NCBI GenBank assembly: GCA_027001995.1
Contig: JALTLO010000055.1
Location: forward strand, 1-20,802
Direction of reading: 5' to 3'
DNA length: 20,802 nucleotides
Source of the DNA: Planctomycetota bacterium
GTDB lineage: Bacteria; Planctomycetota; GCA-002687715; DRQF01
The notes beneath the pieces are model-generated. The model had not been told where the DNA came from and made no database searches. It saw only the letters and a program-made list of their open reading frames with translations. How positions within the stretch are numbered: the first letter of the stretch is position 1; the number at the start of each line of letters is the position of its first letter. Positions 2,405-17,905 of the stretch are shown here, piece by piece. The translations under genes and the position numbers were made by a program.

Positions 2405-3499
2405 TCAATCTTTGCTGGCCAGCTTACGAAACAGATCTTTGGGCCGCCCCTTTTCCAAACTTCGGCAATAGGCATCGAGGAATCGCAGTTTTTCGCGCAA
2501 ACTGAGGGCACCATATTGAGGTAAGTCCCGGACCATTCGGCGCAGGTTCTTCACCCGCACTTCTTCACTGACGGTCACCAAGTGTTTGATGCCATCCAAG
2601 TCAACTAACCACAACTCGCCTTTTTCTGATGCCAGAATGTTGCTGGCTTTGAGGTCACGATTGGAGAAACCTTCCCCGTGCAGAAGCCCGACTAAGCGGC
2701 CCGCTCCAGCAATAAGGCTCAGACGTTCTTCCTTGTCCGCTGACCCCAGGGACTTCAAGTGATCAGCTCCCATTTGCACGTCCGTAAGATAATCCATCAG
2801 AAGATAGGACCGATGGATGCATCCCAAGACCCTACGATCGGCGTAAGCCAAGACTCGGGGAGTGCGAATTCCGATCATCTCAAGGTAGTAACCTCTTTGG
2901 TAAGCGGAACGAGCTCGGGAAGCGGCGAATTGATGTTTGACGAGATTGCGGTATTTCTTGAGATTAAATCTCTTGAGAAGGGCGGGACCGTCGGTTTTGG
3001 CTACGGTGGTGGCCCGAGAATCTTTGATGAGCGAGTCTCCGGGCTGCAAGAATTTGTCCGGGTTTTCTAAGACCAGTTTGTGGGCGTCGGACATAACGTC
3101 GTGACGGGCATGCCACACAAGGCCCCCAGCTTGTATCGTTTTGAAGTCTCGGTTGGTGTGAAAACAACGTTCGATTTCGCCGTTTATGTGATCTCGCATG
3201 GCGGGTTCGATTTGGGTTTCCAAAGACCTTCTTGCTAGATATGTTTCTGCGGCTTGTCGTCGCCTACGGGGGCTGGCTCCGTGCATGAGGGACCACAATT
3301 GGGAGAGGGCTAAGTGGGGGATGTCGACATGGGAACGCTTGACTAAGTCGACCTCTTGAACCGAAGGCAACCCAGATTCATCCCAGGAAAGCGCACTGGG
3401 GGAGGGGTCATTGATGAAGTAGCCACGATCATGGATCGATGCCACCATTTCAATGAGACGTTTGTTGCGGTCTATGTCTTCGGCGCTAAATTCGCTCAT
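2405..3499 (-). CDS. Kdo/WaaP/InaA-family lipopolysaccharide-type kinase with an N-terminal degenerate kinase-like segment
   Basis: LIKDSRATTV, LLKRFN, SRARSAY, GIRTPRVLA, LLMDY, LHGEGFSNRDLKASNIL, LVDLDGI, RLRFLxAY-like EKLRFLDAY. AAGGA RBS upstream of the ATG. Confidence 0.85.
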   Translation of the reverse strand: MSEFSAEDIDRNKRLIEMVASIHDRGYFINDPSPSALSWDESGLPSVQEVDLVKRSHVDIPHLALSQLWSLMHGASPRRRRQAAETYLARRSLETQIEPAMRDHINGEIERCFHTNRDFKTIQAGGLVWHARHDVMSDAHKLVLENPDKFLQPGDSLIKDSRATTVAKTDGPALLKRFNLKKYRNLVKHQFAASRARSAYQRGYYLEMIGIRTPRVLAYADRRVLGCIHRSYLLMDYLTDVQMGADHLKSLGSADKEERLSLIAGAGRLVGLLHGEGFSNRDLKASNILASEKGELWLVDLDGIKHLVTVSEEVRVKNLRRMVRDLPQYGALSLREKLRFLDAYCRSLEKGRPKDLFRKLASKD

Positions 3500-3593: not shown

Positions 3594-5078
3594 TTGGAGA
3601 ATAGAAAGGTTCGGGTGTTGGAAGAGCCGAAGCAGTTGAAAACCGTTGGTTCTGGCCGTTTGTGGGGGACTTCAGCGGGTGAAGAACTCTTAGATTTCTT
3701 GGGTTTGAGTACGCTTTTGGCGGTTGAGGAATTCTCTGGGGGGGAGGTTGTGAACGCTGGTGGCCACCGTTTGGTCCGAAAACTCCAAGGCCCCCAAGGG
3801 GAAATCGCTTATTTGAAGCAGAGTTTTCGGGCATCTGGTGGGGGCTTATTTCAGAGCGTGCTGAAACGCGGCAAACGCTATTCGGCCAGCCGCTTGGAAG
3901 CTGCCAATCTCCTGCGCCTGGGAAAGGCGGGATTCACCTGCGCTGAGGTCTTGGCTTTTGGAGAAGACATCAAAGGGTTGTCGGAGGGTTTTTCATTCCT
4001 TCTGACCCTTGAAGTGGCGGGGGACGACCTGGAAACTTATTTGTCTGGTCACATGAAAAGCTACTGCCGCACTGAGGACCACGACTTGGCCGTCATCTCT
4101 GCTCTTGTTGATTTGTCGACTCGCTTGATCAATCTGGGATTCTATTTCGAAGACCTTGTCCCTAAACATATTTATCTGTCCCAGGATAAAGAAGGGGGAG
4201 TCGTTCTCAGCTTAATTGACGTGGCCCGTTTGGATGTGTCTAAGGCGAAATCTGTTGCGCGAGGGGCCAAGATGCTGGCGAAGCTGAACGTCAATTTGCC
4301 CTTAGCCCAAGTGGGGCATTCCAGCCGCATCCGTTTCCTGCGCGCCATCGAACTTAAGACTCACTTGTCTCTCTTCACCTCTACTCACGAAGAAACAGAA
4401 CGACTCTTAGCAAAGCGTCGCTATCGTTTTGTCCTGTCGCCCTATACTCGTCCGCCCAATCCAAAGTTGTTGCGTTCAAGCAATGGGAGGCAAGCTTGGG
4501 TTGCGGACTTTGTAGACCCCCTGAAGCTGGCGCAAATTGACGCAGGTCCCGTTGATACTTTCGAATTCGCCAAGTCTGAACCCGAGGCCCAGATGTTGGT
4601 GGTGGAAGGCAGCCATGAGGATATCAAGCTGATGGTCAATCTTCACAGTGCGCTTTCGGGCTGGGTGAAAAAGTCTGACTTGGTTGGCTGGGAGATCGGC
4701 TCTGGGGATGCTCAGCAGTCATGGGCTGGATATTGCCCCGCAGACGCTCCTTGGTTGAAGGATTCTCTCGCCACATTAGCGGATTCCAAAGGGGCTATTC
4801 TTGCCCATAACCTGAGCCAAGTCCTATCAGCCTTTTTGCAAGTGGGGGTGTTGCCTGGGCATGACCTCTTGGGGGTTCTCAAATGGCAGAACGATGTCAT
4901 TATTGCTGAGTTCAAACCACCGTTCAGAACCAAAGATCTAAACGTCGATAGTTTGGGGATTCAGTTGGCTGAGGAATTGACCGGGATTTTGGGCCCTAGA
5001 AAAGCTGAATCACTGGTTCGGCTGGTCCAGATAGGCCGTAGAGGGCCTTTGGGGAGTCGGATGACTCTGGTTCGGTGA
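3594..5078 (+). CDS. WaaP-like (Kdo/InaA family) kinase with a ~200-aa C-terminal extension
   Basis: AYLKQ, SRLEAANLLRL, VLAFGE, SFLLTLEV, YFEDLVPKHIY (His at the usual Asn position, as in WaaP), LIDVARL, RIRFLRA. The TTG start is uncertain. Confidence 0.75.
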   Translation: MENRKVRVLEEPKQLKTVGSGRLWGTSAGEELLDFLGLSTLLAVEEFSGGEVVNAGGHRLVRKLQGPQGEIAYLKQSFRASGGGLFQSVLKRGKRYSASRLEAANLLRLGKAGFTCAEVLAFGEDIKGLSEGFSFLLTLEVAGDDLETYLSGHMKSYCRTEDHDLAVISALVDLSTRLINLGFYFEDLVPKHIYLSQDKEGGVVLSLIDVARLDVSKAKSVARGAKMLAKLNVNLPLAQVGHSSRIRFLRAIELKTHLSLFTSTHEETERLLAKRRYRFVLSPYTRPPNPKLLRSSNGRQAWVADFVDPLKLAQIDAGPVDTFEFAKSEPEAQMLVVEGSHEDIKLMVNLHSALSGWVKKSDLVGWEIGSGDAQQSWAGYCPADAPWLKDSLATLADSKGAILAHNLSQVLSAFLQVGVLPGHDLLGVLKWQNDVIIAEFKPPFRTKDLNVDSLGIQLAEELTGILGPRKAESLVRLVQIGRRGPLGSRMTLVR

Positions 5079-5144
5079 AGCCTCTGGAGACCTGGGTGGT
5101 GTTCAGCTAACCTCCGGTGGAATTTGACGTTTGAAAGAGATTCG

Positions 5145-6716
5145 ATGACTGACAGCAAAGATCAAGTCCCTGAGGATGATGCCAAGGCGATTGGCCGGGG
5201 TGCCCTTTACCTCACAATGACAAAATTGTGGTTTATGGTGAGTGGTTATGTCGTTTATTTCGGGCTTCCTCGTTTGTTGGGAGCGGGGGAAGAAGGCAAG
5301 GCGCTTTTTGGCAAGTATCAAGTGGCCATCGGATTGGCGAGTATTGCCAATGCTCTGGCGGTCCAGGGAACAACCCAAGCGATTGCACGTTTCGTCGGCC
5401 GCGGCAAGGTCGGCGGCATCCGGGCCTCGGCAATTCGGCTGCAAGCAATGCTGGGAGGCGGAGCATTCCTGATCTTGTTCTTTGGCGCCCCTTATTTGGC
5501 TTCGGGTTTGTATAGCGATGCTAGTTTGACCCGACCTTTGCAATGCTCGGCATTCATCACTTTGTTCTATTCTTTCTATGGCATTTACATGGGTTACCTC
5601 AATGGCAGCCGTGCTTTTGCCAAGCAAGCTTTGGTGGACTTCTCTTTTTCGACATTAAAAGTGATTGGCGTCCTCTGTGGTGCTGCTTTGCTGAAGGATG
5701 TCATTGACCCAGTTTCTGGCCCAATCATTGGGTGGGCAGCAGCAGCTTTGGTGGTCCTCGTTATGGGGCGAATCCTTTGTGGCCCCGCGATTGCAGGCAA
5801 CGATGTCTCTGTCAGTGAGCTCTTCAGGTTTCAGACATTTACTATGCTGGTGGCCGGTGCCGCCACCGCTGTGGCCAAAACAGATTTACAGGTGGTGAAG
5901 ATTGGCTTAGAGAAATTCCACACCCTGAGTGAAACAGAAATCGATGCCATAGCGGGGGAGTATTCAGCGGCTCAGGTGTTTGCCACCATTCCCTACCAGA
6001 TGGTGTTTGCCATCACCTTCATTCTCTTTCCCTTGGTAACTGCCGCCTCAGATAACGATCTTGAGAAGTTGCGTGGCTATGTCAAACAAACAACACGCTA
6101 TGCAGCGATGATTGCTGGTTGTGTCGTTTCTCTTTTTGTTGCCTGCCCAGAACGTACGCTCATGGTCCTTTTTCGTCCCGAGTATGCCGATGGTGCAGGG
6201 GCCTTACGCTTCCTTGCTCTGGGTTATTTTGCCTATTCCGTCTTCTTCATCATGGTGTCGATCATCACAGCGAGCGGCAAGCCTGCTGTGAGTTTGGGTC
6301 TCGTGGCGACGACCTTCCTGCTGCAGCTTGTTATCGGTTTCCCTTTGGTGGCTACTGTCGGATCTGTGGGGGCAGCGATAGCCACGATGATCGCTATGGC
6401 TTGCGGGCTCGTGATTGCCAACATCTACGCCAAGAAGAACTTTGGTCAGGGGGCAGACTGCAGTGTGATGCTCAGAATCGTGGGTTGCGGAGCTCTTGTG
6501 GGGTTCGTCGCCCATATTCTTTTGGCCCGTTCTACTTTCTGGGGTGGGAGTGGGGTTTTGGCCAACATTGGTGGCACAGGACTTGTTTCTAAGCTACTCA
6601 CTGCCGGTGGATTCAGCGTCTTGGGCGTTTGTTTCATTGCTCTTTTGGTCATCACACACGTCTTTGACGACAATGACAAAGCCAGATTTATGAAAGTCGT
6701 GAAGCGCGGCAAATGA
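5145..6716 (+). CDS. MOP-superfamily (Wzx/MurJ/SpoVB-like) oligosaccharide flippase
   Basis: About 12-14 hydrophobic segments. RLLG...FGKY, GEYSAA, LFPLVT, ALRFLA, GSVGAAIAT are typical flippase patterns, and it sits upstream of glycosyltransferases. ATG 5145 preferred over TTG 5124. Confidence 0.85.
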   Translation: MTDSKDQVPEDDAKAIGRGALYLTMTKLWFMVSGYVVYFGLPRLLGAGEEGKALFGKYQVAIGLASIANALAVQGTTQAIARFVGRGKVGGIRASAIRLQAMLGGGAFLILFFGAPYLASGLYSDASLTRPLQCSAFITLFYSFYGIYMGYLNGSRAFAKQALVDFSFSTLKVIGVLCGAALLKDVIDPVSGPIIGWAAAALVVLVMGRILCGPAIAGNDVSVSELFRFQTFTMLVAGAATAVAKTDLQVVKIGLEKFHTLSETEIDAIAGEYSAAQVFATIPYQMVFAITFILFPLVTAASDNDLEKLRGYVKQTTRYAAMIAGCVVSLFVACPERTLMVLFRPEYADGAGALRFLALGYFAYSVFFIMVSIITASGKPAVSLGLVATTFLLQLVIGFPLVATVGSVGAAIATMIAMACGLVIANIYAKKNFGQGADCSVMLRIVGCGALVGFVAHILLARSTFWGGSGVLANIGGTGLVSKLLTAGGFSVLGVCFIALLVITHVFDDNDKARFMKVVKRGK

Positions 6717-7663
6717 TCGACGGCGTGAAAATCACGGTCACAGTTCCGGCATACAACGAAGAGCCTCTCATTGAGCGCACGATTCGCTCGATCCCAGAGA
6801 TCGTCGACCAGATCATCGTGGTGGACGATGCCTCCACCGACCAAACGGTGAAACGCGTTGAGGAGTTAGCTGATAGCCGGGTTAAGCTGATACGCCGCAA
6901 GAAGAACGGTGGGGTGGGAGCGGCTATTGTCAGTGGCTACAGAAGTTTCCTCGAAGAAGGAGGGGACATCTGCGTGGTTATGGCAGGGGATGCTCAGATG
7001 GACCCTTCTGACTTGATCCCATTGCTCCAACCCATCATGGAAGACCGAGCGGACTACGTCAAAGGCAATCGCTTGGTGACTTCTGACGTTCGCAGTGTCA
7101 TGCCCAGAGAACGATTCCTTGGCAACATTGTTTTTACCATGTTGACTAAGATTGCCAGTGGCTATTGGCATGTGGTTGATTCTCAATGTGGCTATGCGGC
7201 GATTTCTCGTCGTACCCTGGAGCTGATCGATTTGGGCAGTGTCTATGAACGTTATGGCGTCCCCAACGACTTGTTGATCAAACTGAATGTGGTGCAGGCC
7301 CGGGTTTGTGATGTCCCGGTGCGGGCTATTTATGACCAAGAAGTTTCGGGGATAAACCCTTGGACGGCGATCCCCAAGATCAGCCTACTTTTGCTCCGTG
7401 GTTTCTGGTGGCGGATGTGGCAGCGTTATGTGCTGCGCGATTTTCATCCTTTGGTTTTGCTCTATTTCTTCGGGTCGTTCTTTACCACCGTTGGCATCGC
7501 CGGGGCCGCTTGGGTAGCATCTCTAAGACTTTTCGTTGACCAAGCGGTCACTTTTCCCACCGTTGTGAGTATTGCCATCTTGCTCATCGTTGGCATTTTG
7601 TCCCTTCTCTTCGCCATGACATTCGACATGCTGCATAATAGTGATCTCAAGGTGCGGGCCTGA
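6713..7663 (+). CDS. GT2 glycosyltransferase, DPM/GtrB/ArnC-like (polyprenol-phosphate type), with two C-terminal TM helices
   Basis: VPAYNEE, VVDDASTD, NGGVGAA, MAGDAQ, VKGNR, DSQCGY. ATGA overlap with the flippase stop. Confidence 0.92.
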   Translation: MIDGVKITVTVPAYNEEPLIERTIRSIPEIVDQIIVVDDASTDQTVKRVEELADSRVKLIRRKKNGGVGAAIVSGYRSFLEEGGDICVVMAGDAQMDPSDLIPLLQPIMEDRADYVKGNRLVTSDVRSVMPRERFLGNIVFTMLTKIASGYWHVVDSQCGYAAISRRTLELIDLGSVYERYGVPNDLLIKLNVVQARVCDVPVRAIYDQEVSGINPWTAIPKISLLLLRGFWWRMWQRYVLRDFHPLVLLYFFGSFFTTVGIAGAAWVASLRLFVDQAVTFPTVVSIAILLIVGILSLLFAMTFDMLHNSDLKVRA

Positions 7664-8862
7664 TGAACATCATTGTCCCTGCTACGTCTTTTCCGCGTTG
7701 GGATGATGACGCCGCTGGACGATTTGTTTTTGATCTTTCGAAGGGACTCTCGGAATTGGGACACACCGTGACTCACATAGTCCCTCGGAGCGACCAGGGC
7801 AGTGACTCTGACTTAACTTGTCCATCGGGGCTAACCGTGAGGACCATTTCATTCGGGGTGGGAAACTGGGGCAAAGGGCTGGCCTATGGGGCTGGCATGG
7901 GGGCCAATGTGAAGCGAAAGCCCTGGTTGGGGCTTGCAGTCCCTTCGATGCTCAGGGCGTTTAAGCGGGCGCTCACTTTGGCAGTTACGGAAGTCGAAGA
8001 TCCTCTGGTTTTGAGTCATTGGGCTTTCCCCGCTGGCTTAGTGGCCTCCGATGTGGCTTGCAGACAGGGCTTCCCCCATGTTGGTGTGATTCACGGTGGT
8101 GGGTTGCAGGCTCTCACTCAATCGAGACTCACTCAATCATGGGGGCATCGCTGGGCTAAGGGCTTGGATGCCTGTGTCTTCGTCAGTGAAGATTTGAAGA
8201 AGAAGGCCGCGTGTTTCTTGGGCCCTCGAAAGACCAAGCCTTCTCTTGTTCAGCCCATGGGTATCGATTCCTCTCGTTTTGCCCCCAGAAGTCCTCAAGC
8301 CCCGCTGGTTTCATCCGCGAAAGGGCTGCGGCTGTTGGGGGTCGGGCGCTTCATCAAACTGAAGGGCTTTGATCTTCTCATTGAAGCAGCATCTCACCTG
8401 GAGTTTTCTCAGGTGGTTCTTTGTGGCCAGGGGCCAGAAGAACAGAGGCTTAGGAATCAAGGGGCTCGTTTGGGTGTTTCTTGCATTTTCTTGGGCCAGC
8501 TCACACCCGAGGCTCTGGGTGAACAGTATCGTCTGGCAGATCTCCTGGTGGTTCCCAGTCGTTTGGGGCCACAAGGCCGCTCTGAAGGCAGCCCCATGGT
8601 GGTCTTAGAAGCGCTTTCTCAGGGGCTTCCCTTTGTGGGCTCAGCCACAGGAGGGTTGCAATCTTTGGCAGAACAGTCTTCTGCCGGGGTCCTTTTTATG
8701 CTGAACGATTGTCACGATTTACTTCGTTCAATTCGTGCCCTTGCTGCAGATGCCCCCCAAAGAATGACGATGAAGAAAGAAGGACTGCAATTCGCTGGCG
8801 ATCATGAGTACAGTGTGGTTGCAAAGCGAGTCGAAGAGTTACTTGAGAACGTGAGAAGATGA
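7663..8862 (+). CDS. GT4 (GT-B fold) glycosyltransferase
   Basis: SHWAFPAG, IHGG, FVSE, PMGID, VGRFIKLKG, VVPS...EGSPMVVLEA (EX7E). TGATG overlap with the GT2 gene. Confidence 0.92.
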   Translation: MNIIVPATSFPRWDDDAAGRFVFDLSKGLSELGHTVTHIVPRSDQGSDSDLTCPSGLTVRTISFGVGNWGKGLAYGAGMGANVKRKPWLGLAVPSMLRAFKRALTLAVTEVEDPLVLSHWAFPAGLVASDVACRQGFPHVGVIHGGGLQALTQSRLTQSWGHRWAKGLDACVFVSEDLKKKAACFLGPRKTKPSLVQPMGIDSSRFAPRSPQAPLVSSAKGLRLLGVGRFIKLKGFDLLIEAASHLEFSQVVLCGQGPEEQRLRNQGARLGVSCIFLGQLTPEALGEQYRLADLLVVPSRLGPQGRSEGSPMVVLEALSQGLPFVGSATGGLQSLAEQSSAGVLFMLNDCHDLLRSIRALAADAPQRMTMKKEGLQFAGDHEYSVVAKRVEELLENVRR

Positions 8863-11800
8863 AGCGATATCTGGGAGCATTCAGCGCTGGCCTCATCGCC
8901 GCAGCCATTCTTTGGGCTGTGGAGCTGTGGCGTTTGGCTCATGGTGACGCCCTCTCACAGCAGCATCTCTCCTTGTTTGACGGCCCGGCTCTCAACTTGG
9001 CCAAGCAATTTCTAATCCCTGCAATTCTCACCGGTGGTAGCTTGCTCACAACCGTGGCCCTGCGCGATTTGGTTCACAAGCGCGTCACATGGCGTCGACT
9101 GATCGTACCCATCTTGAGCTTGCCGGTAGTTGTGTGGTTGGGCCTTGAGCTCTCCATGGGAACCGGGATTCAGCGGGCGGGTTTGGGCAGCTTCGTTGTC
9201 TTGGCTGTTCCGGTGTTGGGCACTGCCTTTCTCTATTTGTCTGTCCTCCTCTGTGAGGCTTTGTGCAATAAGTGGATCAAGCTCTCGGCGATTCTCCTCA
9301 TTGGAGTTGTGGTGGCCGTGGGCTATGCCAATCGCACGATGCATTTGGGGCGCTATCGCTCAGTTCATGATGTTTTAGCGGCCTTCGAATTCTTGGGTGC
9401 CGCCACCATTGTTCTTCAGCTCTTTTTTCTTCATCGAGTATCCTCTCGCAAACCTCTTACTTGCATTCTCATGGCGGTGCTGGGATTGTTCTTTTTCACC
9501 CGCGCGATGGTCCTTTGGCCCATCACGGGGATGCCCAATGAGACCTTGCGTCAGGTCTATGGTCATGACGGGTTTCACAGTGAGCGCCTGCTCTACTGGC
9601 GACGGAAGTTAGGTGCCCACGGTGCCCCAATCCATGAGACCGACCAAGAGCTTCTCGATGGGATTCGCAACTGGCAAGAACTTGCCGCCGACTATCATGC
9701 TCAGTTGGATCAAAAACTGCCGAATCGGCGAACGTTTAACCTTGTTTGGATTTCAATCGATACACTTCGCCCGGATCGTTTAGGGTGCTATGGTTCCGAT
9801 GCCGGGCTAACGCCAGCGATCGATGCTATTGCCCAAGAGGGTGCCGTTTTTCGCGATGCCTACAGTCAATATCCTTCTACCAATTTGTCCAGCGAGTCCA
9901 TGTTTTTCGGGCGCTATCCTCGTGCCACGGCGATCTATCGCGACATCAAAGGTGATCTTTCAAAAGAGGATGCAAGGGCTCTGCGGTTTTCGGCCTTGGC
10001 TAAACAAAACGGTATGCATACCACGGCCAGCGTCGCTTTCACCGAAGAGTGGATGCACAGCCCCCTGTTCGTTCGAGCACTTGCCGACTATGAATCTGTG
10101 AACGAAGGGCGAACGGGAAGTCCCAGTTTAGACGGTGAACATTTCGCAAATTCTGCCATCAAGACGATTGATAGATTTCGTGAAAGTCGATTTTTCTTGT
10201 GGTTTCATCTTTTTGATCCTCATCATCCCTATGATTTTCGTGAGGGCTACGCTAAGAGCGAAGGAGCGGAAGGGCGCTACGATAGCGAAGTGGGCTACGC
10301 CGATTCCCAGGTTGCCCGGGTGGTTAAGAAGTTGAAGGATACTGGTCTTTGGGACACAACCATCATTGTGATCAACTCAGATCATGGGGAGGCTTTCGGC
10401 GAGCAAGGGCTGAAGTACCACGGTTCAAGCTTGCATGAAGCACAAATTCGTGTGCCTTTGATCATCCGTGTTCCTGGGATGAAACCAACGCAGCCTCAAG
10501 TCATCGCCGAAAACGTTGACATCTATCCCACCATCGCGAGTCTCTTAGCTCTTGATGGCACATCGGAGAACCAAGGGACAGACTTAACACCTCTCATGTT
10601 CGACTCTGAGTCCTACGGCGATCAATTCCCCAGTTTCGCCTATGCCGAATTGCCTGACGACGTCGAGGAGCTTTCTTCCAGCGCCAGGCGGACTGCCATC
10701 TTCCGACAGGGCCCGTGGAAAGTGAGGAAACAACTGCTTCTTGACTACACCGAGCTCTATAACTTGGATGATGACCCTTGGGAGACCAAGAACCTTGCAG
10801 CGGCTTTTCCTCTCAGGGCCAAGAAGTTAACGCAACGTCTTCACACGATGGCGAAATGGACCGGGAGTTTTGGTCGTAAAAGGAGCAGTCGGCAGATTCG
10901 TCACGAGCGCCTCAAAACTGCCAAGTCTCAGTTGATTGCCAAATCACCTGTGGCTGTGGGGCAGGCACTCAAGTACATCGCACGCCACGACCTGTTCGAG
11001 CTGAGGAATGACATCTTCGCCTTGGCGAAAGGGCAAAATGTCCTCGACGAGATTCGTTGTGAGTCTCTAGTCATGGCGGCTCGATGGAACGCACCAGGGT
11101 GGCGAGAGCTGGCCCTCGACTGGACCTATTCTGAAAACCCATCTGCTCGCTGGTTAGCCCTTGAACTCATTTTCGATGATCTGGCTCTCACCGATCAGTC
11201 ATTCTCTCAAAATTGGAGAGTGGACACCTTGAGGGCCTTGGCCGAGAACGCCAAGAAACTTGGTCGAGGAGATACCGGTGATGCACTTTTGGCCAGAGTG
11301 TTCGTCGCCCTGACAGTTCGGCTTTCTGGGATTAGAGCCAGCGATGATGATGTTGAGAGTGATTGGCGCCATCTCTTGGATAGCCACTACGTCGACCGAA
11401 ATATGAAGCGTCGCTTGGTCTTGGCATATTTGGATGAGCTTGACCACTTGTGGCGATACTTAGATCTTTTCTCCGAAGATCGAGAGCGGGGGCAGTTCCT
11501 GAATGCAATTTGGCGTTCAGGTAGACGTGCCCCGTGGTTGGATGTCGTTCGCGTACTCATTCCTGATCGCTACCTACGGGAATCCATCAAGCACGATATC
11601 TTACGTCACATCTCCTTTGATTTTCCCATCGAGATCCAAAATGAAGTGGCTTTGTTTTTCTTAGCTGGTTGGGACCCTGGTTTTCATGAGGAAGTGCTCA
11701 AAGAGCTTCTGCCTCGGTTGGGTAAGCAGCGCATTGAGCATTTGCAAATTGCCCGCAGTTTGATGGTTGATGGTGATGAGCTACTCCACAGTGGGCATTT

Positions 11801-12833
11801 TGAAGGTGCCGTTGAGGCTTTTGGAGAGGCAGAGACATATCTTGTCGGTTTAGCGATCGCTCGCCAGGTTACCCTCAAGCGCATTAAGGCATTGATGCTT
11901 GCGGGGCAGGGGGAGTTGGCTGAAAAGGTGCTGCGCTCCCAAAGCCCCTACGAAGGTGCATTTCGCCTGCCTGCCTTAGAACGGGAATTTGAAGTCTTGG
12001 GCCGCTATCATCCTTCACGAGGTTTGTTGCTTGATAGCGAAAAAATCGAAGTGGAGTCTGTTGCCTTGGCTCCTGCCGCTGAGCGTTTCGTTGTTGCGGA
12101 CCAAGACTTATTCCTGTCAGTTGCCTTAGCCAACAATAGCAGTCGTTCTTTGCCCGGTGGAGCATGGGGTTTGGGTGGCCGCTTACGTGTTCTTTGGTCA
12201 AGAGATGGCAAGACGAACTGGGAATACGGAACGCAGGTAGACTTGGGCCAAGGGATCTTGCCTCAAGAAAAGTGGAAACAAGAGATTGTTGTTCAGGCTC
12301 CAAACGAACTTGGGCATTGGTATGGCCGCGTGATCGTCAATCAGCAAGGGGGAGCTCGTTTCTATCAAGTGGAAGATGCCAGAGGGCTTTTTGAAGTGAA
12401 CGTCGTTCGTGCCCACCAAGGTCCACCGTCTGGCTCTTGGAACCCAGTGGAGATGGCGAAGTACTTCGAGTTTGATGAGCGTCTTCGGGATCCCCTTGTC
12501 GCCAAACCAGGAGGAACATTGGAGCTGATGGCTCTCGGCTACGAAGGTGCTTTTCGAACGCCTCCCTTATCCTTCGATGGCAACGAGCATGAAATCACTA
12601 TCGACTATATTTGGGACTCTGCCATTGAGAGCGCCAATCTCATTCGCATCGATCTCTTACCTGCGGGAGCATTTCCTCCCGTTGATAGTCCTATCATTCT
12701 CAACATTCCCTGTGACGGAAGTCCTCAGAAGTTCCAAGCCAAACTCCCTCGTTGCATTGGCCTCTACCGCGTCGAAGTCTGGATCGGCTACCGCCAGGGC
12801 TACTTACAGCTTCAGAATTTCACCATCCGCTGA
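8859..12833 (+). CDS. Large membrane-anchored sulfatase/alkaline-phosphatase-superfamily protein (Thr-type) with helical-repeat, TPR-like and Ig-like C-terminal regions
   Basis: About 7 N-terminal TM helices. NLVWISIDTLRPD (D301), YPSTNLSSESMFFGRYP (T341), HLFDPHHPY, YDSEVGYAD, NSDHGE (D508/H509), YHG, RVPLII, DIYPT, ELYNLDDDPWETKNL. ATGA overlap with the GT4 gene. Confidence 0.85.
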   Translation: MKRYLGAFSAGLIAAAILWAVELWRLAHGDALSQQHLSLFDGPALNLAKQFLIPAILTGGSLLTTVALRDLVHKRVTWRRLIVPILSLPVVVWLGLELSMGTGIQRAGLGSFVVLAVPVLGTAFLYLSVLLCEALCNKWIKLSAILLIGVVVAVGYANRTMHLGRYRSVHDVLAAFEFLGAATIVLQLFFLHRVSSRKPLTCILMAVLGLFFFTRAMVLWPITGMPNETLRQVYGHDGFHSERLLYWRRKLGAHGAPIHETDQELLDGIRNWQELAADYHAQLDQKLPNRRTFNLVWISIDTLRPDRLGCYGSDAGLTPAIDAIAQEGAVFRDAYSQYPSTNLSSESMFFGRYPRATAIYRDIKGDLSKEDARALRFSALAKQNGMHTTASVAFTEEWMHSPLFVRALADYESVNEGRTGSPSLDGEHFANSAIKTIDRFRESRFFLWFHLFDPHHPYDFREGYAKSEGAEGRYDSEVGYADSQVARVVKKLKDTGLWDTTIIVINSDHGEAFGEQGLKYHGSSLHEAQIRVPLIIRVPGMKPTQPQVIAENVDIYPTIASLLALDGTSENQGTDLTPLMFDSESYGDQFPSFAYAELPDDVEELSSSARRTAIFRQGPWKVRKQLLLDYTELYNLDDDPWETKNLAAAFPLRAKKLTQRLHTMAKWTGSFGRKRSSRQIRHERLKTAKSQLIAKSPVAVGQALKYIARHDLFELRNDIFALAKGQNVLDEIRCESLVMAARWNAPGWRELALDWTYSENPSARWLALELIFDDLALTDQSFSQNWRVDTLRALAENAKKLGRGDTGDALLARVFVALTVRLSGIRASDDDVESDWRHLLDSHYVDRNMKRRLVLAYLDELDHLWRYLDLFSEDRERGQFLNAIWRSGRRAPWLDVVRVLIPDRYLRESIKHDILRHISFDFPIEIQNEVALFFLAGWDPGFHEEVLKELLPRLGKQRIEHLQIARSLMVDGDELLHSGHFEGAVEAFGEAETYLVGLAIARQVTLKRIKALMLAGQGELAEKVLRSQSPYEGAFRLPALEREFEVLGRYHPSRGLLLDSEKIEVESVALAPAAERFVVADQDLFLSVALANNSSRSLPGGAWGLGGRLRVLWSRDGKTNWEYGTQVDLGQGILPQEKWKQEIVVQAPNELGHWYGRVIVNQQGGARFYQVEDARGLFEVNVVRAHQGPPSGSWNPVEMAKYFEFDERLRDPLVAKPGGTLELMALGYEGAFRTPPLSFDGNEHEITIDYIWDSAIESANLIRIDLLPAGAFPPVDSPIILNIPCDGSPQKFQAKLPRCIGLYRVEVWIGYRQGYLQLQNFTIR

Positions 12834-12877: not shown

Positions 12878-14044
12878 CTAACCTTCGAAGAAGACACGGC
12901 CTTCTTTGGCTCTTTGGACCAGGAAGGCGCCGATCTCTGGGCGCATGACGCTGGGGGGAGGGCATTCGCCGCGAGAGAGCATGGCGCGGACGTCTGTGCC
13001 GCTGATCTGGAGCCAAGCGTCTTCGTGAGGGCAAGTATGTTCGGTGACGATGGACTGACAAGTCTCGCACCAGCAGGGACCGTGTAGGCGCATGGGAGTA
13101 ATCCCCAACTCATCTCCGAACTCGTCGAAGATTTTATGGCCAGCGTATTTCTCGTAGTAGTCCCCAACACCGGCATGATCACGTCCAACGATGAAGTGGG
13201 TACAGCCGAAGTTCTTACGAATGATAGAATGGAAGACCGCTTCTTTAGGACCGGCGTAACGCATGGCTGTGGTGAGACCCGCGAGCATGGTGTTGGCCTT
13301 GACGTAGTATTTCTCCGTCAAGATTTCATAACCTTCCAGAATGACTTCTGGTTGCATGTCACCCTTTTTCTTCCAGCCAATCAAAGGATGAATGAGCAGA
13401 CCGTCTGCATGTTCGAGGGCGATCTTTTGCAGGTGCTCGTGAGCGCGATGACCCAAATTTCTGGTTTGGAAGCCGACGATGCGTTTCCAGCCCTTTTCGG
13501 CGAACTGAGCGCGAACCTGGGAGGGTGATAAGTCGTAACCTCCAGGGATGAGGCTCTCGGCATAGTCAATCAATTCGATAGAGCCAGCGATGAGGGAGTC
13601 GCCCCAGTTCATCATCAGGTTGACGCCAGGGTGGGCCCGATCTGTTGTGCCGTAAACCTTCTGTGCGTAATCGGTCTTGTCTATGGTGAAGATCTCGTCG
13701 ACCGTGATGATAGCGGCAATGCTGTCGTCTGCGGCATTGATGATGGCGGCATCGTCGCCCACTTTCAAAGATTCCGTGTCACTCTTGGGCGCATGAAAGA
13801 CGATGGGGATGGTCCAAGGGATGCCATCGACCCGGTGCATGGTGTCCAAGACTGCCCGCACATCATTGGAACCCATGAACCCTGTGAGGGGTGAGAAAGT
13901 GCCGTTGGCAATTTTCTCCACGTCCAAGATTGCATTTTTGTCGGCTAAGAGCTTGGGTAAGGTCTTGGCGTAGTTGCGTTTTTCGTCGCGCTGATCGGCT
14001 GAGCAAGCGCGATCGATCAGTTCGCCACCGAGTGGTTCGTTCAT
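12878..14044 (-). CDS. sat: Sulfate adenylyltransferase (ATP sulfurylase, Sat type)
   Basis: FSPLTGFM, WTIPI, FQTRNLGHRAHE, MRYAGPKEA, RKNFGCTHFIVGRDHAGVG, Zn-site-like CETC...CPH, ISGTDVR, MRPE. Confidence 0.95.
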   Translation of the reverse strand: MNEPLGGELIDRACSADQRDEKRNYAKTLPKLLADKNAILDVEKIANGTFSPLTGFMGSNDVRAVLDTMHRVDGIPWTIPIVFHAPKSDTESLKVGDDAAIINAADDSIAAIITVDEIFTIDKTDYAQKVYGTTDRAHPGVNLMMNWGDSLIAGSIELIDYAESLIPGGYDLSPSQVRAQFAEKGWKRIVGFQTRNLGHRAHEHLQKIALEHADGLLIHPLIGWKKKGDMQPEVILEGYEILTEKYYVKANTMLAGLTTAMRYAGPKEAVFHSIIRKNFGCTHFIVGRDHAGVGDYYEKYAGHKIFDEFGDELGITPMRLHGPCWCETCQSIVTEHTCPHEDAWLQISGTDVRAMLSRGECPPPSVMRPEIGAFLVQRAKEGRVFFEG

Positions 14045-15771
14045 TTTTTGGCTTCTACTTTGTTGGTTACGCGGTCTTCACGAATGCGAGGATAAATCTT
14101 CTCGCGGGAGATACCTAAGTCGATCAAGTTGTCGTTGTCGTTCCAGGCTCGGCCATTGGTCATGCAGGTGTTGATGTCGAATCCGCTGTCAGCGATTTGT
14201 TCAAACACTTCGCTCAGGAAGCAAAGCATGTTTTCTTCGCGCACCATCTTGCCCAATTGATCCCAAAGGTGACGGGCGCCCCGGCGAGAGATTTTAGCCA
14301 AACCGATGAATTCGCCGTTGGCCTTGTCGTCTGGGATGTCCTTGGAAGCTTTGACGACTTTCCCTTTTTTCACGATTACTTTTTCGTCTTCAGCATCGAA
14401 GTCTTTGCGATTGTCGATAGCCAAGACGATGTCGCCTTCGGTGGCGATGAGGTCTTCTAAGATAGAGGGGTCAAAGATGATGTCGCCGTAGCATAAGATG
14501 AGGTTGGTGTCGCGCTTTTGCGCTAACCACAAGGAAACCGCCATACTGGTGGTTTGATACCAAGGGTTGTAAACGAACTGACCGTCGTAAATGTCGGAGG
14601 CCATGTAGTGTTCAATTTGCCGGTTGTTGTGGCCGGTGACGATGGTGACTTTCTCAGAGCTGATTCCCGACAACAGCAAGTTTTCCATCACATGGTTGAT
14701 GATGGTTGTGCCTCCGACGTCCAACATGCACTTGTGCTTGTTCTTGGTCAAGGAGCCGAAACCTGTAGAAGGTCCTGCCGCCATGATGACGGCTTCAAAG
14801 TCCCGGGCCAGGCTCTCTTCCACAGTGCGGGCAACCTTGGACATGGTGGCGATACATTCTTCAGGGTAGTCGCCAATGGCAGTTTCTTCTGAGAGCATCA
14901 AGATGTTAGCCCCGTCTAAAACGGCGTTGGCCACATCGGAGACCTCCGCCATGAAGGGCAGGGGTTTGTCGAGCATGGAGGTCAAGAATTGGGAGGCAAT
15001 GATGACGGGGACTTTGTAGTCTGCAGCTTTCTTGAGCACCATTTTTTGGGTGAGTGGCACGTTTTCTTTGCCGATCTCAGCTTCTAAATCTCCTCGATCA
15101 ATCATGATCATGGCGGCGTCACTCAAGATCTGGTCGACCTTCACCACAGCTTCTGCGGTTTCGACCTTGGCGATCACTTGGATCTGAGTGCCAACCAATT
15201 GAGACTGAATACGGCGCACTTGCTCAACGTTGCGGACGAAGGACAAACCGACATAGTCGATCTTGGCTTCAATGGCGATATTGAGAAGGTCGATGTCTCT
15301 TTCGAAGTCGAAGGGGATCTCACCGTGGATGCCACGGATGTTGATGCCCTTGCGAGTCGCCAAAGGGCCACCGACATGAACAACGGTATGAATGTCTTCA
15401 CCCTTGATGGCCGCGACTTCGAGCTTGATGCTGCCATCGGCGGCGGAAATCTGGTCTCCCGCTTTAAGGCTCTTGTAGAGGGGGCGGTAAGTCAAGTTGT
15501 CTGGTTTGAGAACAAATGCCTCGCCTTTTTTGAGCATGATCGGCTTGGCTATGTTGTCGGTTCGGATTTTGTTGCCTGGGAGGTCGAGGAGAATCTCAAC
15601 CCCTTTGGGGAGATCCTTTTTGAGCCCAGCCACCATTTTCTTGACGTCTTCAAGTGAGCCATGAGCCCCGTTGACCCGGGCGATGTTCATGCCAGCGTTG
15701 GCGAGTTTGTCCAGCCAGGACTTGGTAGCGGTTTTGGGGCCGATAGTGCAGATAAATCGAGTCTTAGACAT
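14041..15771 (-). CDS. Fusion of divergent pyruvate kinase (A+B domains, no C domain) and LicC/PntC-like nucleotidyltransferase, 576 aa
   Basis: PK part (~15771-14805): CTIGP, ARVNGAHG, LLDLPGNKIRT, LSFVR, IAKVE, DRGDLEAEI, AEVSDVANAVLDG, MLSEETA. NTase part (~14800-14041): AVIMAAG, KCML, YNPWY, YGDIIF, EDEKV, GEFIG, WNDND. ATG 15771 (MSKTRFICTIGP) matches PK N-termini. ATGA overlap with sat. Confidence 0.9.
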   Translation of the reverse strand: MSKTRFICTIGPKTATKSWLDKLANAGMNIARVNGAHGSLEDVKKMVAGLKKDLPKGVEILLDLPGNKIRTDNIAKPIMLKKGEAFVLKPDNLTYRPLYKSLKAGDQISAADGSIKLEVAAIKGEDIHTVVHVGGPLATRKGINIRGIHGEIPFDFERDIDLLNIAIEAKIDYVGLSFVRNVEQVRRIQSQLVGTQIQVIAKVETAEAVVKVDQILSDAAMIMIDRGDLEAEIGKENVPLTQKMVLKKAADYKVPVIIASQFLTSMLDKPLPFMAEVSDVANAVLDGANILMLSEETAIGDYPEECIATMSKVARTVEESLARDFEAVIMAAGPSTGFGSLTKNKHKCMLDVGGTTIINHVMENLLLSGISSEKVTIVTGHNNRQIEHYMASDIYDGQFVYNPWYQTTSMAVSLWLAQKRDTNLILCYGDIIFDPSILEDLIATEGDIVLAIDNRKDFDAEDEKVIVKKGKVVKASKDIPDDKANGEFIGLAKISRRGARHLWDQLGKMVREENMLCFLSEVFEQIADSGFDINTCMTNGRAWNDNDNLIDLGISREKIYPRIREDRVTNKVEAKK

Positions 15772-16051: not shown

Positions 16052-17905
16052 TTGACCAGTCCAAGCGATAATTCGGGTGTCTCTAAGATCGGTCTGCCGC
16101 GGGCTTTTGACCTCACCTGGCCCTTATTGGTGGGATTTCTTGCGATTTTGGTCACTCCCTGGGATGAGCCTCTGACTGCCGCCATCAATCCTTTAAGTCC
16201 GATTCCTTGGTTGGACACTTGGGCACATTTTCTTGACAAGTGGTCGACGCGCATCGAGCTATTGCTGCTCTTGAGTTTGTTTTTCTTGTCTCATTTGTGG
16301 ACGAAGTTCAAAACGCAGCGCAAGAGCCTCTGCGGCTTTGTCTCGGCTTGGGTCCTTTGTGAGATCGTGGTTGGGACTTTGAAGCGGGTGACTCATCGTC
16401 CCAGACCTGGGCATGTTGAAGGAATGCAGGACCAACTCCGGGTTCTTTTTGATCACATCGACTACAAGAGTTTTCCTTCTGGCCATACTGCTTTCGCCGT
16501 AACCGTGGCGCTTTTCTTGACTGTTTGGCGCCCGAAAAGCCTTTGGGTGCCTCTGGGATGGGGGCTGGCGATTCTCATTGGTCTTGGGCGTATCTACATT
16601 GGCGCACATCACCCCAGCGACGTTCTCGCTGGGGCCGCCGTGGGCTGGTTGCTGATGACAGTTTCCTGGAAAGCCACAACACCGGGTCGAGGCATTTTCG
16701 CATTTATTTATCCTCCCAAGCGTTTGGCACCCATGATTCTTGTGGTTTGGGCGTTGGTCGTGGGCTGGATTTTTCATGACTCCATTTCCTTACGGGACGG
16801 GATTTCCGGCGAGGTCTTGGCCAATTGGCACCTTCCTAAACAAGACTGGCTCCATGTCCTTGGGGAACCCATCTTTGGGCCGGCGCGGAAGATCGCAAGC
16901 CTGCCGGACTTAAGGATGGTTGTCCTGTGGGGAGGGTTTTGGCTCCTTTTTCTGTCTATCTTGGCCTTTCTTAAATGGGGTCTACGATCTCTCAAAGTCA
17001 CCACTTCTGTGATAGCCGCATCTTTGATCTGGGGGTTTTTGGCGATCAGCGGTGGTGCTGGTTGGGGGGGAAGGCCTCGTTCAGATGAGGCAAGAACATA
17101 TTGGGCATTTGATGCTCAGAGTCATTTGGGTGATCCCTATGACGGGGCTGTGAGCCTTGAGGACGGACTGAAGCGTTTTGCTGATTTGGGTTATAACATG
17201 GTGATTCCGACCTGGCATGATGCTTGGGCTCAAGGTTATATCTTGAGGGACAAAGCTGGCTGGGAGCCCATGGAGTTCTTTGGTGCGGAATGGAGCGGCG
17301 GGGACCCGGCGGACCATCCCCTTCACCTTTTGGTCTACAATCGTTCTGCCACCCCAAAGAATTTGAAGGCAATCACAGACTACTCTCTGTTGATTGAGGC
17401 GGTTCATCAAGCCGGTGGGCTTGTCATCGCTTCGCATTTTTGGCGAGGGGATAATGGGGCTATGCCATCGTCAGAGGAGTTGATCGCCGCCAACATTGAT
17501 GGATTTGAAGTAGCTGGCAGGAATGAGGAAGGCAGTTCGGAGGCCCTGGAGCGTTTAGGTGCACTTCGAGGTGGCATTGCCAAGCACAATCTCTTGGCTT
17601 TGGGAAACAGCGACTTTCACGGCAAACGTGGCTTCAACCAAGTGTGGAATATGGTGCCTCAGGACTTGGTGCCCCTCAGCCCGTCGGGTTTGATGGATGT
17701 CTTGAATTCTGGCAATCAAAAGCATCGCGTTGTGTCACTTCACTCTGACCCTGTGACTGGAATCTTCGGGCCATGGCACGCCCTTGTTCGCTATTTGCGG
17801 GAACTGCCCAAGAAGGGCCGAGTGGTATGGTTGCTGTGGGTGACAATCGCCGGTGTGCTTGTTTGGCGCCGGGGAATCAATATTCCATCTTCGAAAACAG
17901 AGTAA
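16052..17905 (+). CDS. PAP2 (type 2 phosphatidic acid/undecaprenyl-PP phosphatase family) membrane domain fused to a PHP-family domain
   Basis: PAP2 motifs KRVTHRPRP, SFPSGH and GRIYIGAHHPSDV. Further TM helices follow, then PHP-like FDAQSH..DG, PTWHD, GAEWS, HLLV, SHFWR, DGFEV, GNSDFHG and a final TM helix. The TTG start is uncertain. Confidence 0.82.
   Translation: MTSPSDNSGVSKIGLPRAFDLTWPLLVGFLAILVTPWDEPLTAAINPLSPIPWLDTWAHFLDKWSTRIELLLLLSLFFLSHLWTKFKTQRKSLCGFVSAWVLCEIVVGTLKRVTHRPRPGHVEGMQDQLRVLFDHIDYKSFPSGHTAFAVTVALFLTVWRPKSLWVPLGWGLAILIGLGRIYIGAHHPSDVLAGAAVGWLLMTVSWKATTPGRGIFAFIYPPKRLAPMILVVWALVVGWIFHDSISLRDGISGEVLANWHLPKQDWLHVLGEPIFGPARKIASLPDLRMVVLWGGFWLLFLSILAFLKWGLRSLKVTTSVIAASLIWGFLAISGGAGWGGRPRSDEARTYWAFDAQSHLGDPYDGAVSLEDGLKRFADLGYNMVIPTWHDAWAQGYILRDKAGWEPMEFFGAEWSGGDPADHPLHLLVYNRSATPKNLKAITDYSLLIEAVHQAGGLVIASHFWRGDNGAMPSSEELIAANIDGFEVAGRNEEGSSEALERLGALRGGIAKHNLLALGNSDFHGKRGFNQVWNMVPQDLVPLSPSGLMDVLNSGNQKHRVVSLHSDPVTGIFGPWHALVRYLRELPKKGRVVWLLWVTIAGVLVWRRGINIPSSKTE

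Follow-up and report, generated by a model that had tools for sequence, protein, structure and literature searches.

On the minus strand of a Planctomycetota genome (assembly GCA_027001995.1, contig JALTLO010000055.1, positions 1 to 20,802, this whole stretch of 20,802 nucleotides being referred to as the window), a single open reading frame of 576 aa (15771-14041) joins a pyruvate kinase (PK)-like barrel to a nucleotidyltransferase (NTase) domain and overlaps sat, the gene for ATP sulfurylase. The fusion gene is conserved, real and undescribed, and it belongs neither to canonical PK, nor to the LicC/PntC enzymes, nor to the cassettes that make 3'-phosphoadenosine 5'-phosphosulfate (PAPS). Bacterial sulfation is commonly taught as a route from adenosine 5'-phosphosulfate (APS) to PAPS and on to a sulfotransferase. 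Judged from sequence, the fusion and Sat may instead form the core cell-envelope sulfation module of the order to which this genome belongs, in which a lipid or glycan would be sulfated straight from APS, with no APS kinase and with the PK domain driving Sat; this reading is given about even chances of being right. The parts of the module are the following:

14806..15771, minus strand: PK-like A and B domains, residues 1-322, member of the DRGD clade (PF00224, E 3e-74; catalytic set kept; model pLDDT 91.6)
15097..15099, minus strand: Asp225, at the position of Ala in VARGDL, directly ahead of helix 226-233 (alignment A1; DSSP of the model)
14041..14805, minus strand: PntC/LicC-like NTase domain, residues 323-576, altered signature GPSTGFG...HK (best fold match PntC, 6pd2)
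14761..14763, minus strand: Gly337, at the place of the pyrophosphate (PPi)-binding Arg of GXG(T/S)RX4-8PK (domain counts; role of Arg15 as given in PMC6697681)
12878..14044, minus strand: sat, ATP sulfurylase, ATGA-coupled to the fusion (domain, cut-off and motif checks)

A Pfam search of the fusion protein places the PK barrel at residues 2-307 (PF00224, E 3e-74) and the start of NTP_transf_3 at residue 327, and the allosteric C-terminal PK_C domain (PF02887) is absent, in agreement with an earlier note on this DNA that had described PK A and B domains joined to an NTase without the C domain. Both domains are present in 110 of the 120 best-listed homologues, the window's own 605-aa gene call being one of the 110; 9 of the 120 are stand-alone 317-aa barrels, and the PK lid (B) domain is deleted in 21 of the 110 two-domain proteins. 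The domain junction at about 14805 is bridged by a contig of a second, independent study (X3 record 16, 14386-14876, 7 differences), which together with the two-domain homologues rules out the assembly artefact that had been raised as a concern. In favour of the 576-aa start, the alignments of P0004-P0006 begin at residue 1; bases 14041-14044 read TCAT on the plus strand, that is, the ATGA overlap of the fusion stop and the sat start noticed before. A promoter and terminator scan at the locus gave signal at chance level, a complex prediction of the fusion with Sat scored 0.00 and bears neither way, and among longer fused forms (>1008 aa) only canonical PK repeats turned up, which is weak evidence.

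The NTase domain has the LicC/PntC fold, as had been proposed: PntC ranks first in both sequence and fold searches, with Foldseek TM scores of 0.85 to 6pd2 and 0.78 to 1jyk. The motif GXG(T/S)RX4-8PK, including Arg15, makes up the PPi pocket of PntC, and the variants R15A, K25A and K153A each leave <10% of the activity, according to PMC6697681. The fusion does not carry this signature and reads GPSTGFG...KHK, with Gly337 equivalent to Arg15 and His346 equivalent to Pro24. The substitutions are a property of the fused family: of 105 fused domains, 97 have Gly at the Arg position and 99 have His at the Pro position, as against 49 of 51 unfused relatives with Arg. The equivalent of Lys25, K347 in the window protein, is kept in 77/105 fused domains and lost in the lidless forms; the window protein also has K477 (equivalent to Lys153) and the Mg-site residues D430, D545 and D547, and this acceptor-side Lys and the Mg-site Asp residues are invariant. 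Because the PPi-pocket Arg is lost and the acceptor Lys and Mg-site Asp residues are kept, the domain looks able to hold a nucleoside monophosphate (NMP)-oxyanion and poorly built for the turnover of nucleoside triphosphates (NTPs).

The PK-like domain retains R32, N34, H37, D63, K68, R70, K141, S177, K202, E204, D228, S260, S294 and E296, and thus the Mg and phosphoryl-transfer residues of canonical PK, whose PKM equivalents we take to be R73, N75, D113, K270, E272, D296, T328, S362 and E364. It departs from canonical PK at the A-R-G-D-L motif and at the Arg of PTRAE, where it has D225 and M274, respectively. Asp225 is invariant in alignment A1 (n=55), and the genome's own pyk has Ala at this position. 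The Mg and phosphoryl residues are equally conserved in 241 rows of the clade and 154 canonical rows, and the PTRAE Arg is retained in 15/241 of the former versus 154/154 of the latter; since the canonical rows were chosen by their Ala, that column holds by definition, and the Arg column is independent of the choice. In the model (pLDDT 91.6), Asp225 immediately precedes helix 226-233 as assigned by DSSP. In PK, backbone amides at the start of this helix presumably bind the pyruvate carboxylate, and the neighbouring subunit presumably steadies the helix through its PTRAE Arg; Asp225 could therefore act as a helix cap, occupy the site of the carboxylate and do away with the need for the PTRAE Arg, its side-chain position being deduced from DSSP and known PK structures. 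A canonical pyk with VARGDL, PTRAE and the C domain lies on contig C141, and a second PK occurs in 3 of 5 other carrier genomes, which rules out the fusion as the sole or glycolytic PK; the only-PK objection of the earlier note falls with it.

The DRGD clade to which this domain belongs is uncharacterised, and its tie appears to be to sulfate activation and not to the NTase. The Asp-for-Ala motif pattern was found at no fewer than 80 metagenome loci (at least 80) and matched no canonical pyk locus. Among the 80 listed clade loci, sat lies within 1.5 kb in 55, and in 25 of the 31 with both flanks, as compared with 0 of 68 canonical pyk loci, the latter control being what remained of the 80 loci of a genome-contig scan with an unspecific pattern after its 12 clade members were set apart. 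Fusions to the NTase make up only 5 of the 80 listed metagenome loci; the other 75 lack a fused NTase yet have the same Asp, and cysC is present at 33 of the 51 unfused sat-linked loci. It is this contrast, sat at 55/80 clade loci versus 0/68 canonical ones, that links the clade to sulfate activation. In a tree, built in a quick version only and after the defining column had been masked, 40 canonical rows stand apart from 70 of 72 sampled Asp rows; two long-branch PK-Sat rows (L140, L201) are not separated from the canonical ones. Genes for CysQ, TauE, a Na/H-antiporter family protein, sulfotransferases, TagF-like proteins, Thr-type sulfatase-fold proteins and nonulosonic-acid synthesis recur beside clade members. 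No member with the motif pattern was found in viral contigs, none in E. coli genomes by DNA search, and none in plasmids with a stand-alone-barrel query at 1e-40.

The clade takes several further forms. It includes PK-Sat-CysC triple fusions and PK-Sat, Sat-PK and PK-CysC double fusions (L140, L194, L203, L204, L213; P0160, P0192, P0131). PK-NTase fusions with the whole B domain deleted (P0093-P0113; L007-L010, L267) reside in Omnitrophota-type glycan operons. At L198:1-2676, minus strand, an 892-aa protein that combines a PPDK_N domain with a degenerate, NTase-like N-terminal part is clustered with a CDP-alcohol phosphotransferase (CAPT), a sulfotransferase and a PK-Sat fusion. Two Komagataeibacter plasmids, NZ_CP023041.1 (L258:805-2644) and NZ_CP041349.1 (L259:6315-8990), carry LuxR, sulfotransferase and Asp-clade PK in a row without sat or cysC. 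At L142, L149, L184 and L208, an Asp-clade PK with the C domain is found with TauE and an AEC-family transporter and no sat, with a converging HD-domain gene in two of them. In the Campylobacterota capsule-type loci L135:6654-14416 and L136:6932-12115, the order is DUF2972, (cysC), sat, PK and antiporter near kpsC or heptose genes; such positions are, we assume, usually occupied by O-methyl phosphoramidate (MeOPN) genes.

The distribution of the fusion was determined in 401 Planctomycetota genomes, 23 of them from the order of the window genome. A fusion-level match (E < 1e-230) is present in 23/23 genomes of the order and in 0/378 other Planctomycetota, in which the next-best match is a stand-alone barrel at 1e-100, and sat is directly downstream in all 23. 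Outside the order the occurrence is sporadic, with the fusion in 6 of 351 genomes of the Omnitrophota carrier's phylum. Over 35 fused loci, some of which (from metagenomes) may duplicate genomes, sat lies within 1.5 kb in 33; of the other two, one runs into a contig end and L004 is without sat; the recurrent linkage to sat anticipated earlier is thereby confirmed.

The sat gene (14044-12878, minus strand) encodes 388 aa, scores above the cut-offs of PRK04149 and TIGR00339, and has the PUA_2 and ATP-sulfurylase domains with QTRN, HxxH and GRDHA intact, as expected of a Sat-type ATP sulfurylase; every module read has canonical motifs at the anion site. APS kinase was found in 12 of the 23 genomes of the order, and PF01507 (CysD-like here and mostly beside cysNC) in 9; sulfite reductase was found in 1/23, which suggests that the order does not assimilate sulfate. 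Neither APS kinase nor PF01507 was found in 10/23 genomes, 7 of them at least 90% complete, and APS kinase was likewise not found in 3/3 Omnitrophota carriers tested, whose completeness is not known. Within the stretches examined, none of the 35 fused loci has cysC beside it, and in the fusion subfamily genes for APS kinase, CysQ and PAPS sulfotransferase are all missing from the adjacent positions, unlike in a PAPS cassette. In the present genome, cysD and cysNC form a cluster of their own on contig C49, together with a sulfotransferase-like gene, so that both canonical pyk and cysD/cysN exist elsewhere in it, as the earlier note had advised checking. A search for aprA, made without a positive control, gave 0/5 genomes. 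Family I soluble pyrophosphatase (PPase) was found in 3/23 genomes of the order and DHHA2 in 0/5.

A CAPT orthologue is encoded in 17/23 genomes of the order, including this one (C182:65372-66148), and in none of the other 378 Planctomycetota among the 401 searched; it directly follows sat in 6 genomes. The CAPT is an extra copy, as carriers have three PF01066 genes and non-carriers two (5 genomes). A soluble Thr-type sulfatase-fold (AlkP) protein is present in 5/23 genomes, all among those lacking the CAPT; the two occur together in 0/23, and neither was found in one genome, which is 76% complete. In the other phylum, the fusion is accompanied by an unrelated CAPT (L267), by the same AlkP (L010, L268) or by TagF-like genes (L007, L009). 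The exclusivity of CAPT and AlkP in the order, the order-wide missing APS sink, the count of Arg losses and the capping idea are new to the present analysis.

Taken together, the module resembles a nucleotide-activated surface-decoration pathway crossed with sulfate activation, and the envelope-decoration role suggested previously is supported. In the proposed sulfation route, Sat would make APS and PPi from ATP and sulfate, as its intact motifs and the knowledge of its family lead one to expect. The PK-like domain would serve as a helper dedicated to Sat that drives this very unfavourable step, being neither glycolytic nor mainly the supplier of the NTase; Asp225 probably caps the helix that binds the pyruvate carboxylate in true PK, leaving the site closed and the Mg and phosphoryl residues in place. 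The NTase-fold domain may then bind APS as a mimic of its NMP-oxyanion product and either hand it on or make a cytidine form, after which the CAPT or, elsewhere, the soluble Thr-type sulfatase-fold enzyme would place the group, be it sulfate or a phospho-group that bears sulfate, on a hydroxyl of a lipid or glycan and release NMP.

Granted this route, PPi removal is the leading candidate for the activity of the PK domain, at slightly short of even confidence. It is favoured because PK is joined to Sat at either end, some members have no lid, soluble PPase is scarce, and natural fusions of ATP sulfurylase with pyrophosphatase are already known. The fusion contains no inorganic pyrophosphatase domain (PF00719, DHHA2 or PF03030 by Pfam), so such a role would mean a new fold for that activity. 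ATP regeneration is a possible activity of distinctly lower likelihood: it fits the PK-CysC fusions but not the module of the order, because no ADP is made in half of its genomes. The earlier note had offered local NTP regeneration or PPi coupling for Sat, and the ATP-regeneration form of this idea is weak here, since ADP is not a product of Sat and no cysC adjoins the fusion. Transfer of a sulfuryl or phosphoryl group to a small acceptor is a somewhat fainter prospect. The conversion of PPi and ADP to ATP and Pi was discarded as a means of pulling Sat forward, its free-energy change being about +11 kJ/mol. The most far-reaching version, in which the DRGD clade is a PK-fold pyrophosphatase (or another phosphoryl enzyme not using phosphoenolpyruvate, PEP) that acts with the Arg-less PntC domain and the CAPT to sulfate from APS or cytidine phosphosulfate, with no PAPS or classical sulfotransferase and with a sulfated lipid or glycan core to the whole order as its product, appears unlikely as a whole.

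Several observations count against sulfation from APS with the PK domain as a helper of Sat. The L004 locus carries the fusion without sat; the two Komagataeibacter plasmids hold a clade PK with a sulfotransferase only, and the four PK-TauE-AEC loci also lack sat, and in both settings PPi removal makes less sense. Most clade members retain the lid and all the phosphoryl-transfer residues, like a working PK, and a membrane H+-PPase (PF03030) in 20/23 genomes of the order provides another exit for PPi. With Lys347 and Lys477 retained throughout the order, the NTase may still transfer cytidylyl groups slowly, and the CAPT motifs TPN and DxxDGxxAR are canonical, a better fit to an ordinary CDP-alcohol donor than to APS. 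The exclusivity of CAPT and AlkP tracks kinship, with about two or three events behind it, and its hypergeometric figure overstates it. In addition, all the genomes are metagenome-assembled, and the absences in them mean "not found".

Alternatively, if the PK domain phosphorylates a small alcohol or acid, or sulfurylates it from APS, the NTase could make a CDP derivative of the product, and the CAPT, TagF-like or AlkP enzyme could transfer the sulfated phospho-group. This scheme, which takes in the kinase and the sulfuryl-transfer options of the earlier note, accords with PntC as the nearest structure, with the canonical CAPT motifs and the TagF-like neighbours in L007 and L009, and with an altered PK residue that lines the acceptor site, and it accounts for the missing APS sink too. 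It is nevertheless doubtful: the Arg15 equivalent is lost in 97/105 fused domains, and the Lys25 equivalent in the lidless forms also, where the corresponding PntC variants R15A and K25A retain <10% activity in the data of PMC6697681, and at 75 of the 80 listed clade loci the same Asp occurs with no fused NTase, which would leave the PK product without an activating enzyme. The same loss of Arg, and a clade usually found with Sat or CysC and no NTase (5/80 listed), weaken the earlier option of a kinase followed by the NTase. An ordinary, unregulated PK that holds ATP high and ADP low for PAPS synthesis, with the NTase fold as a nucleotide-sensing replacement of the C domain and a CysC elsewhere finishing PAPS, is a less credible proposal still. 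Every catalytic PK residue is retained, the NTase occupies the place of the regulatory domain, the PK-CysC and PK-Sat-CysC fusions suit ADP recycling, and this genome has cysNC; however, APS kinase was not found in 11/23 genomes of the order nor in 3/3 Omnitrophota carriers, Sat makes no ADP, a canonical pyk is also present, and the fixed Asp, the lidless forms and the CAPT or AlkP partner go unexplained.

Two further proposals reassign the substrate. The PK-like domain might obtain sulfate or APS for Sat from an organosulfur acid that the cell takes up, sulfopyruvate or sulfolactate for example, given that the PK-TauE-AEC cassettes without sat (L142, L149, L184, L208) look like import-cleave-export modules, and a TauE or Na/H-antiporter-family gene lies beside many sat modules; the module of the order, however, has no transporter, and no dehydrogenase or transaminase recurs among the neighbours, and the proposal is rated improbable. 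Sat might, alternatively, adenylylate a PK-made oxyanion other than sulfate (e.g., phosphoramidate), in parallel to the Campylobacter MeOPN pathway, in view of the cysC-sat-PK genes that adjoin DUF2972 proteins and kpsC in the capsule loci L135 and L136, and of L145, which has a GATase and an intact NTase alongside. The canonical Sat anion-site motifs in all modules read and the recurrence of sulfotransferases, CysQ and TauE nearby count against this proposal, which is very hard to credit.

The module was compared with the known systems closest to it. It shares with PntC, LicC and IPCT with CAPT (6pd2, 1jyk, 4mnd) the fold, the equivalents of Lys25, Lys153 and the Mg site, and the pairing with a CAPT or TagF-like gene near glycan genes; it differs in having Gly for the PPi-pocket Arg and His for Pro, a PK barrel as partner instead of a PEP mutase or transaminase, coupling to sat, and recurring neighbours without phosphonate genes. 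No PEP mutase or phosphonopyruvate decarboxylase gene is present in the window or among annotated neighbours, no genome-wide pepM search having been made. With PK (PF00224; K+-independent type, Lys68) it has in common the A and B domains, the Mg and phosphoryl residues and 36-37% identity, whereas it lacks the C domain, has Asp for the Ala of VARGDL, is a second copy beside a canonical pyk and is tied to sat. Similar to the PAPS synthases (Sat-CysC, 2gks) and the ATP sulfurylase-pyrophosphatase fusions, a canonical Sat is joined or adjacent to a helper for the unfavourable step, the helper here being of PK fold; the fusions of stramenopiles and haptophytes, as described in PMC2275785, are a precedent. 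A C. jejuni capsule locus also lists "pyruvate kinase, barrel domain", sulfate adenylyltransferase and a Na+/H+ antiporter, with the function not given in Table 3 of PMC2993937. The same trio occurs in loci L134-L137, clade membership of the C. jejuni protein being deduced from synteny only, and its barrel, as that table has it, stands alone with no NTase, unlike the fusion. No characterised PK-NTase or PK-Sat protein was found in the literature searched, which mostly did not extend to subscription journals.

The genes that surround the module in the window are as follows:

16052..17905, plus strand: PAP2 phosphatase with a PHP-like C-terminal part, divergent neighbour (PAP2 domain; PHP-like lead score 0.90)
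8859..12833, plus strand: membrane-anchored sulfatase-fold protein, convergent, with Thr (YPSTNLS) where sulfatases have their Cys/Ser motif (PF00884; motif read)
5124..8862, plus strand: flippase, GT2 and GT4 of the convergent glycan operon (domain searches; adjacency counts)

The PAP2/PHP-like gene lies upstream of the fusion in 20/23 genomes of the order, the other 3 being cut by contig ends, and its product is a possible lipid-phosphate partner. A gap of 44 bases separates the end of sat from that of the convergent 1324-aa sulfatase-fold gene (8859-12833, plus strand), the last gene after flippase-GT2-GT4. The convergence on a glycan operon stressed in the earlier note thus exists in the window, but as a fixed link it does not hold: flippase and GT2 adjoin the module in 6 of the 16 genomes of the order that have long stretches, and 7 genomes with sufficient flank lack them. 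In L268, the fusion and sat belong to one operon with homologues of the flippase and GT genes, and a PAP2 gene is part of that operon as well. The sulfatase-fold gene adjoins the module mainly in family f1 and is not a constant part of it; its membrane-anchored Thr-type product is a candidate periplasmic transferase, and flippase-GT2-GT4 are a possible acceptor pathway. At least 7 more homologues of this protein are encoded in the same genome (contigs C88, C105, C68, C79, C51, C153 and C89), and two divergent Kdo/WaaP-family lipopolysaccharide kinase-like genes (2405-3499, minus strand; 3594-5078, plus strand) are located just before the flippase.

The order keeps sat, and about half of its genomes are without an APS kinase or reductase, which implies either an APS consumer or a job of Sat that is yet to be recognised. 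In capsule, O-antigen and plasmid loci across many phyla, members of the DRGD clade bear the simple label "pyruvate kinase", a possible case of widespread misannotation. The question is directly testable, since the CAPT is the one core protein that is not soluble and Komagataeibacter, a cultured food bacterium, has a version of just two genes. Such a test could uncover a pyrophosphatase of new fold or sulfuryl-transfer chemistry of a new kind.

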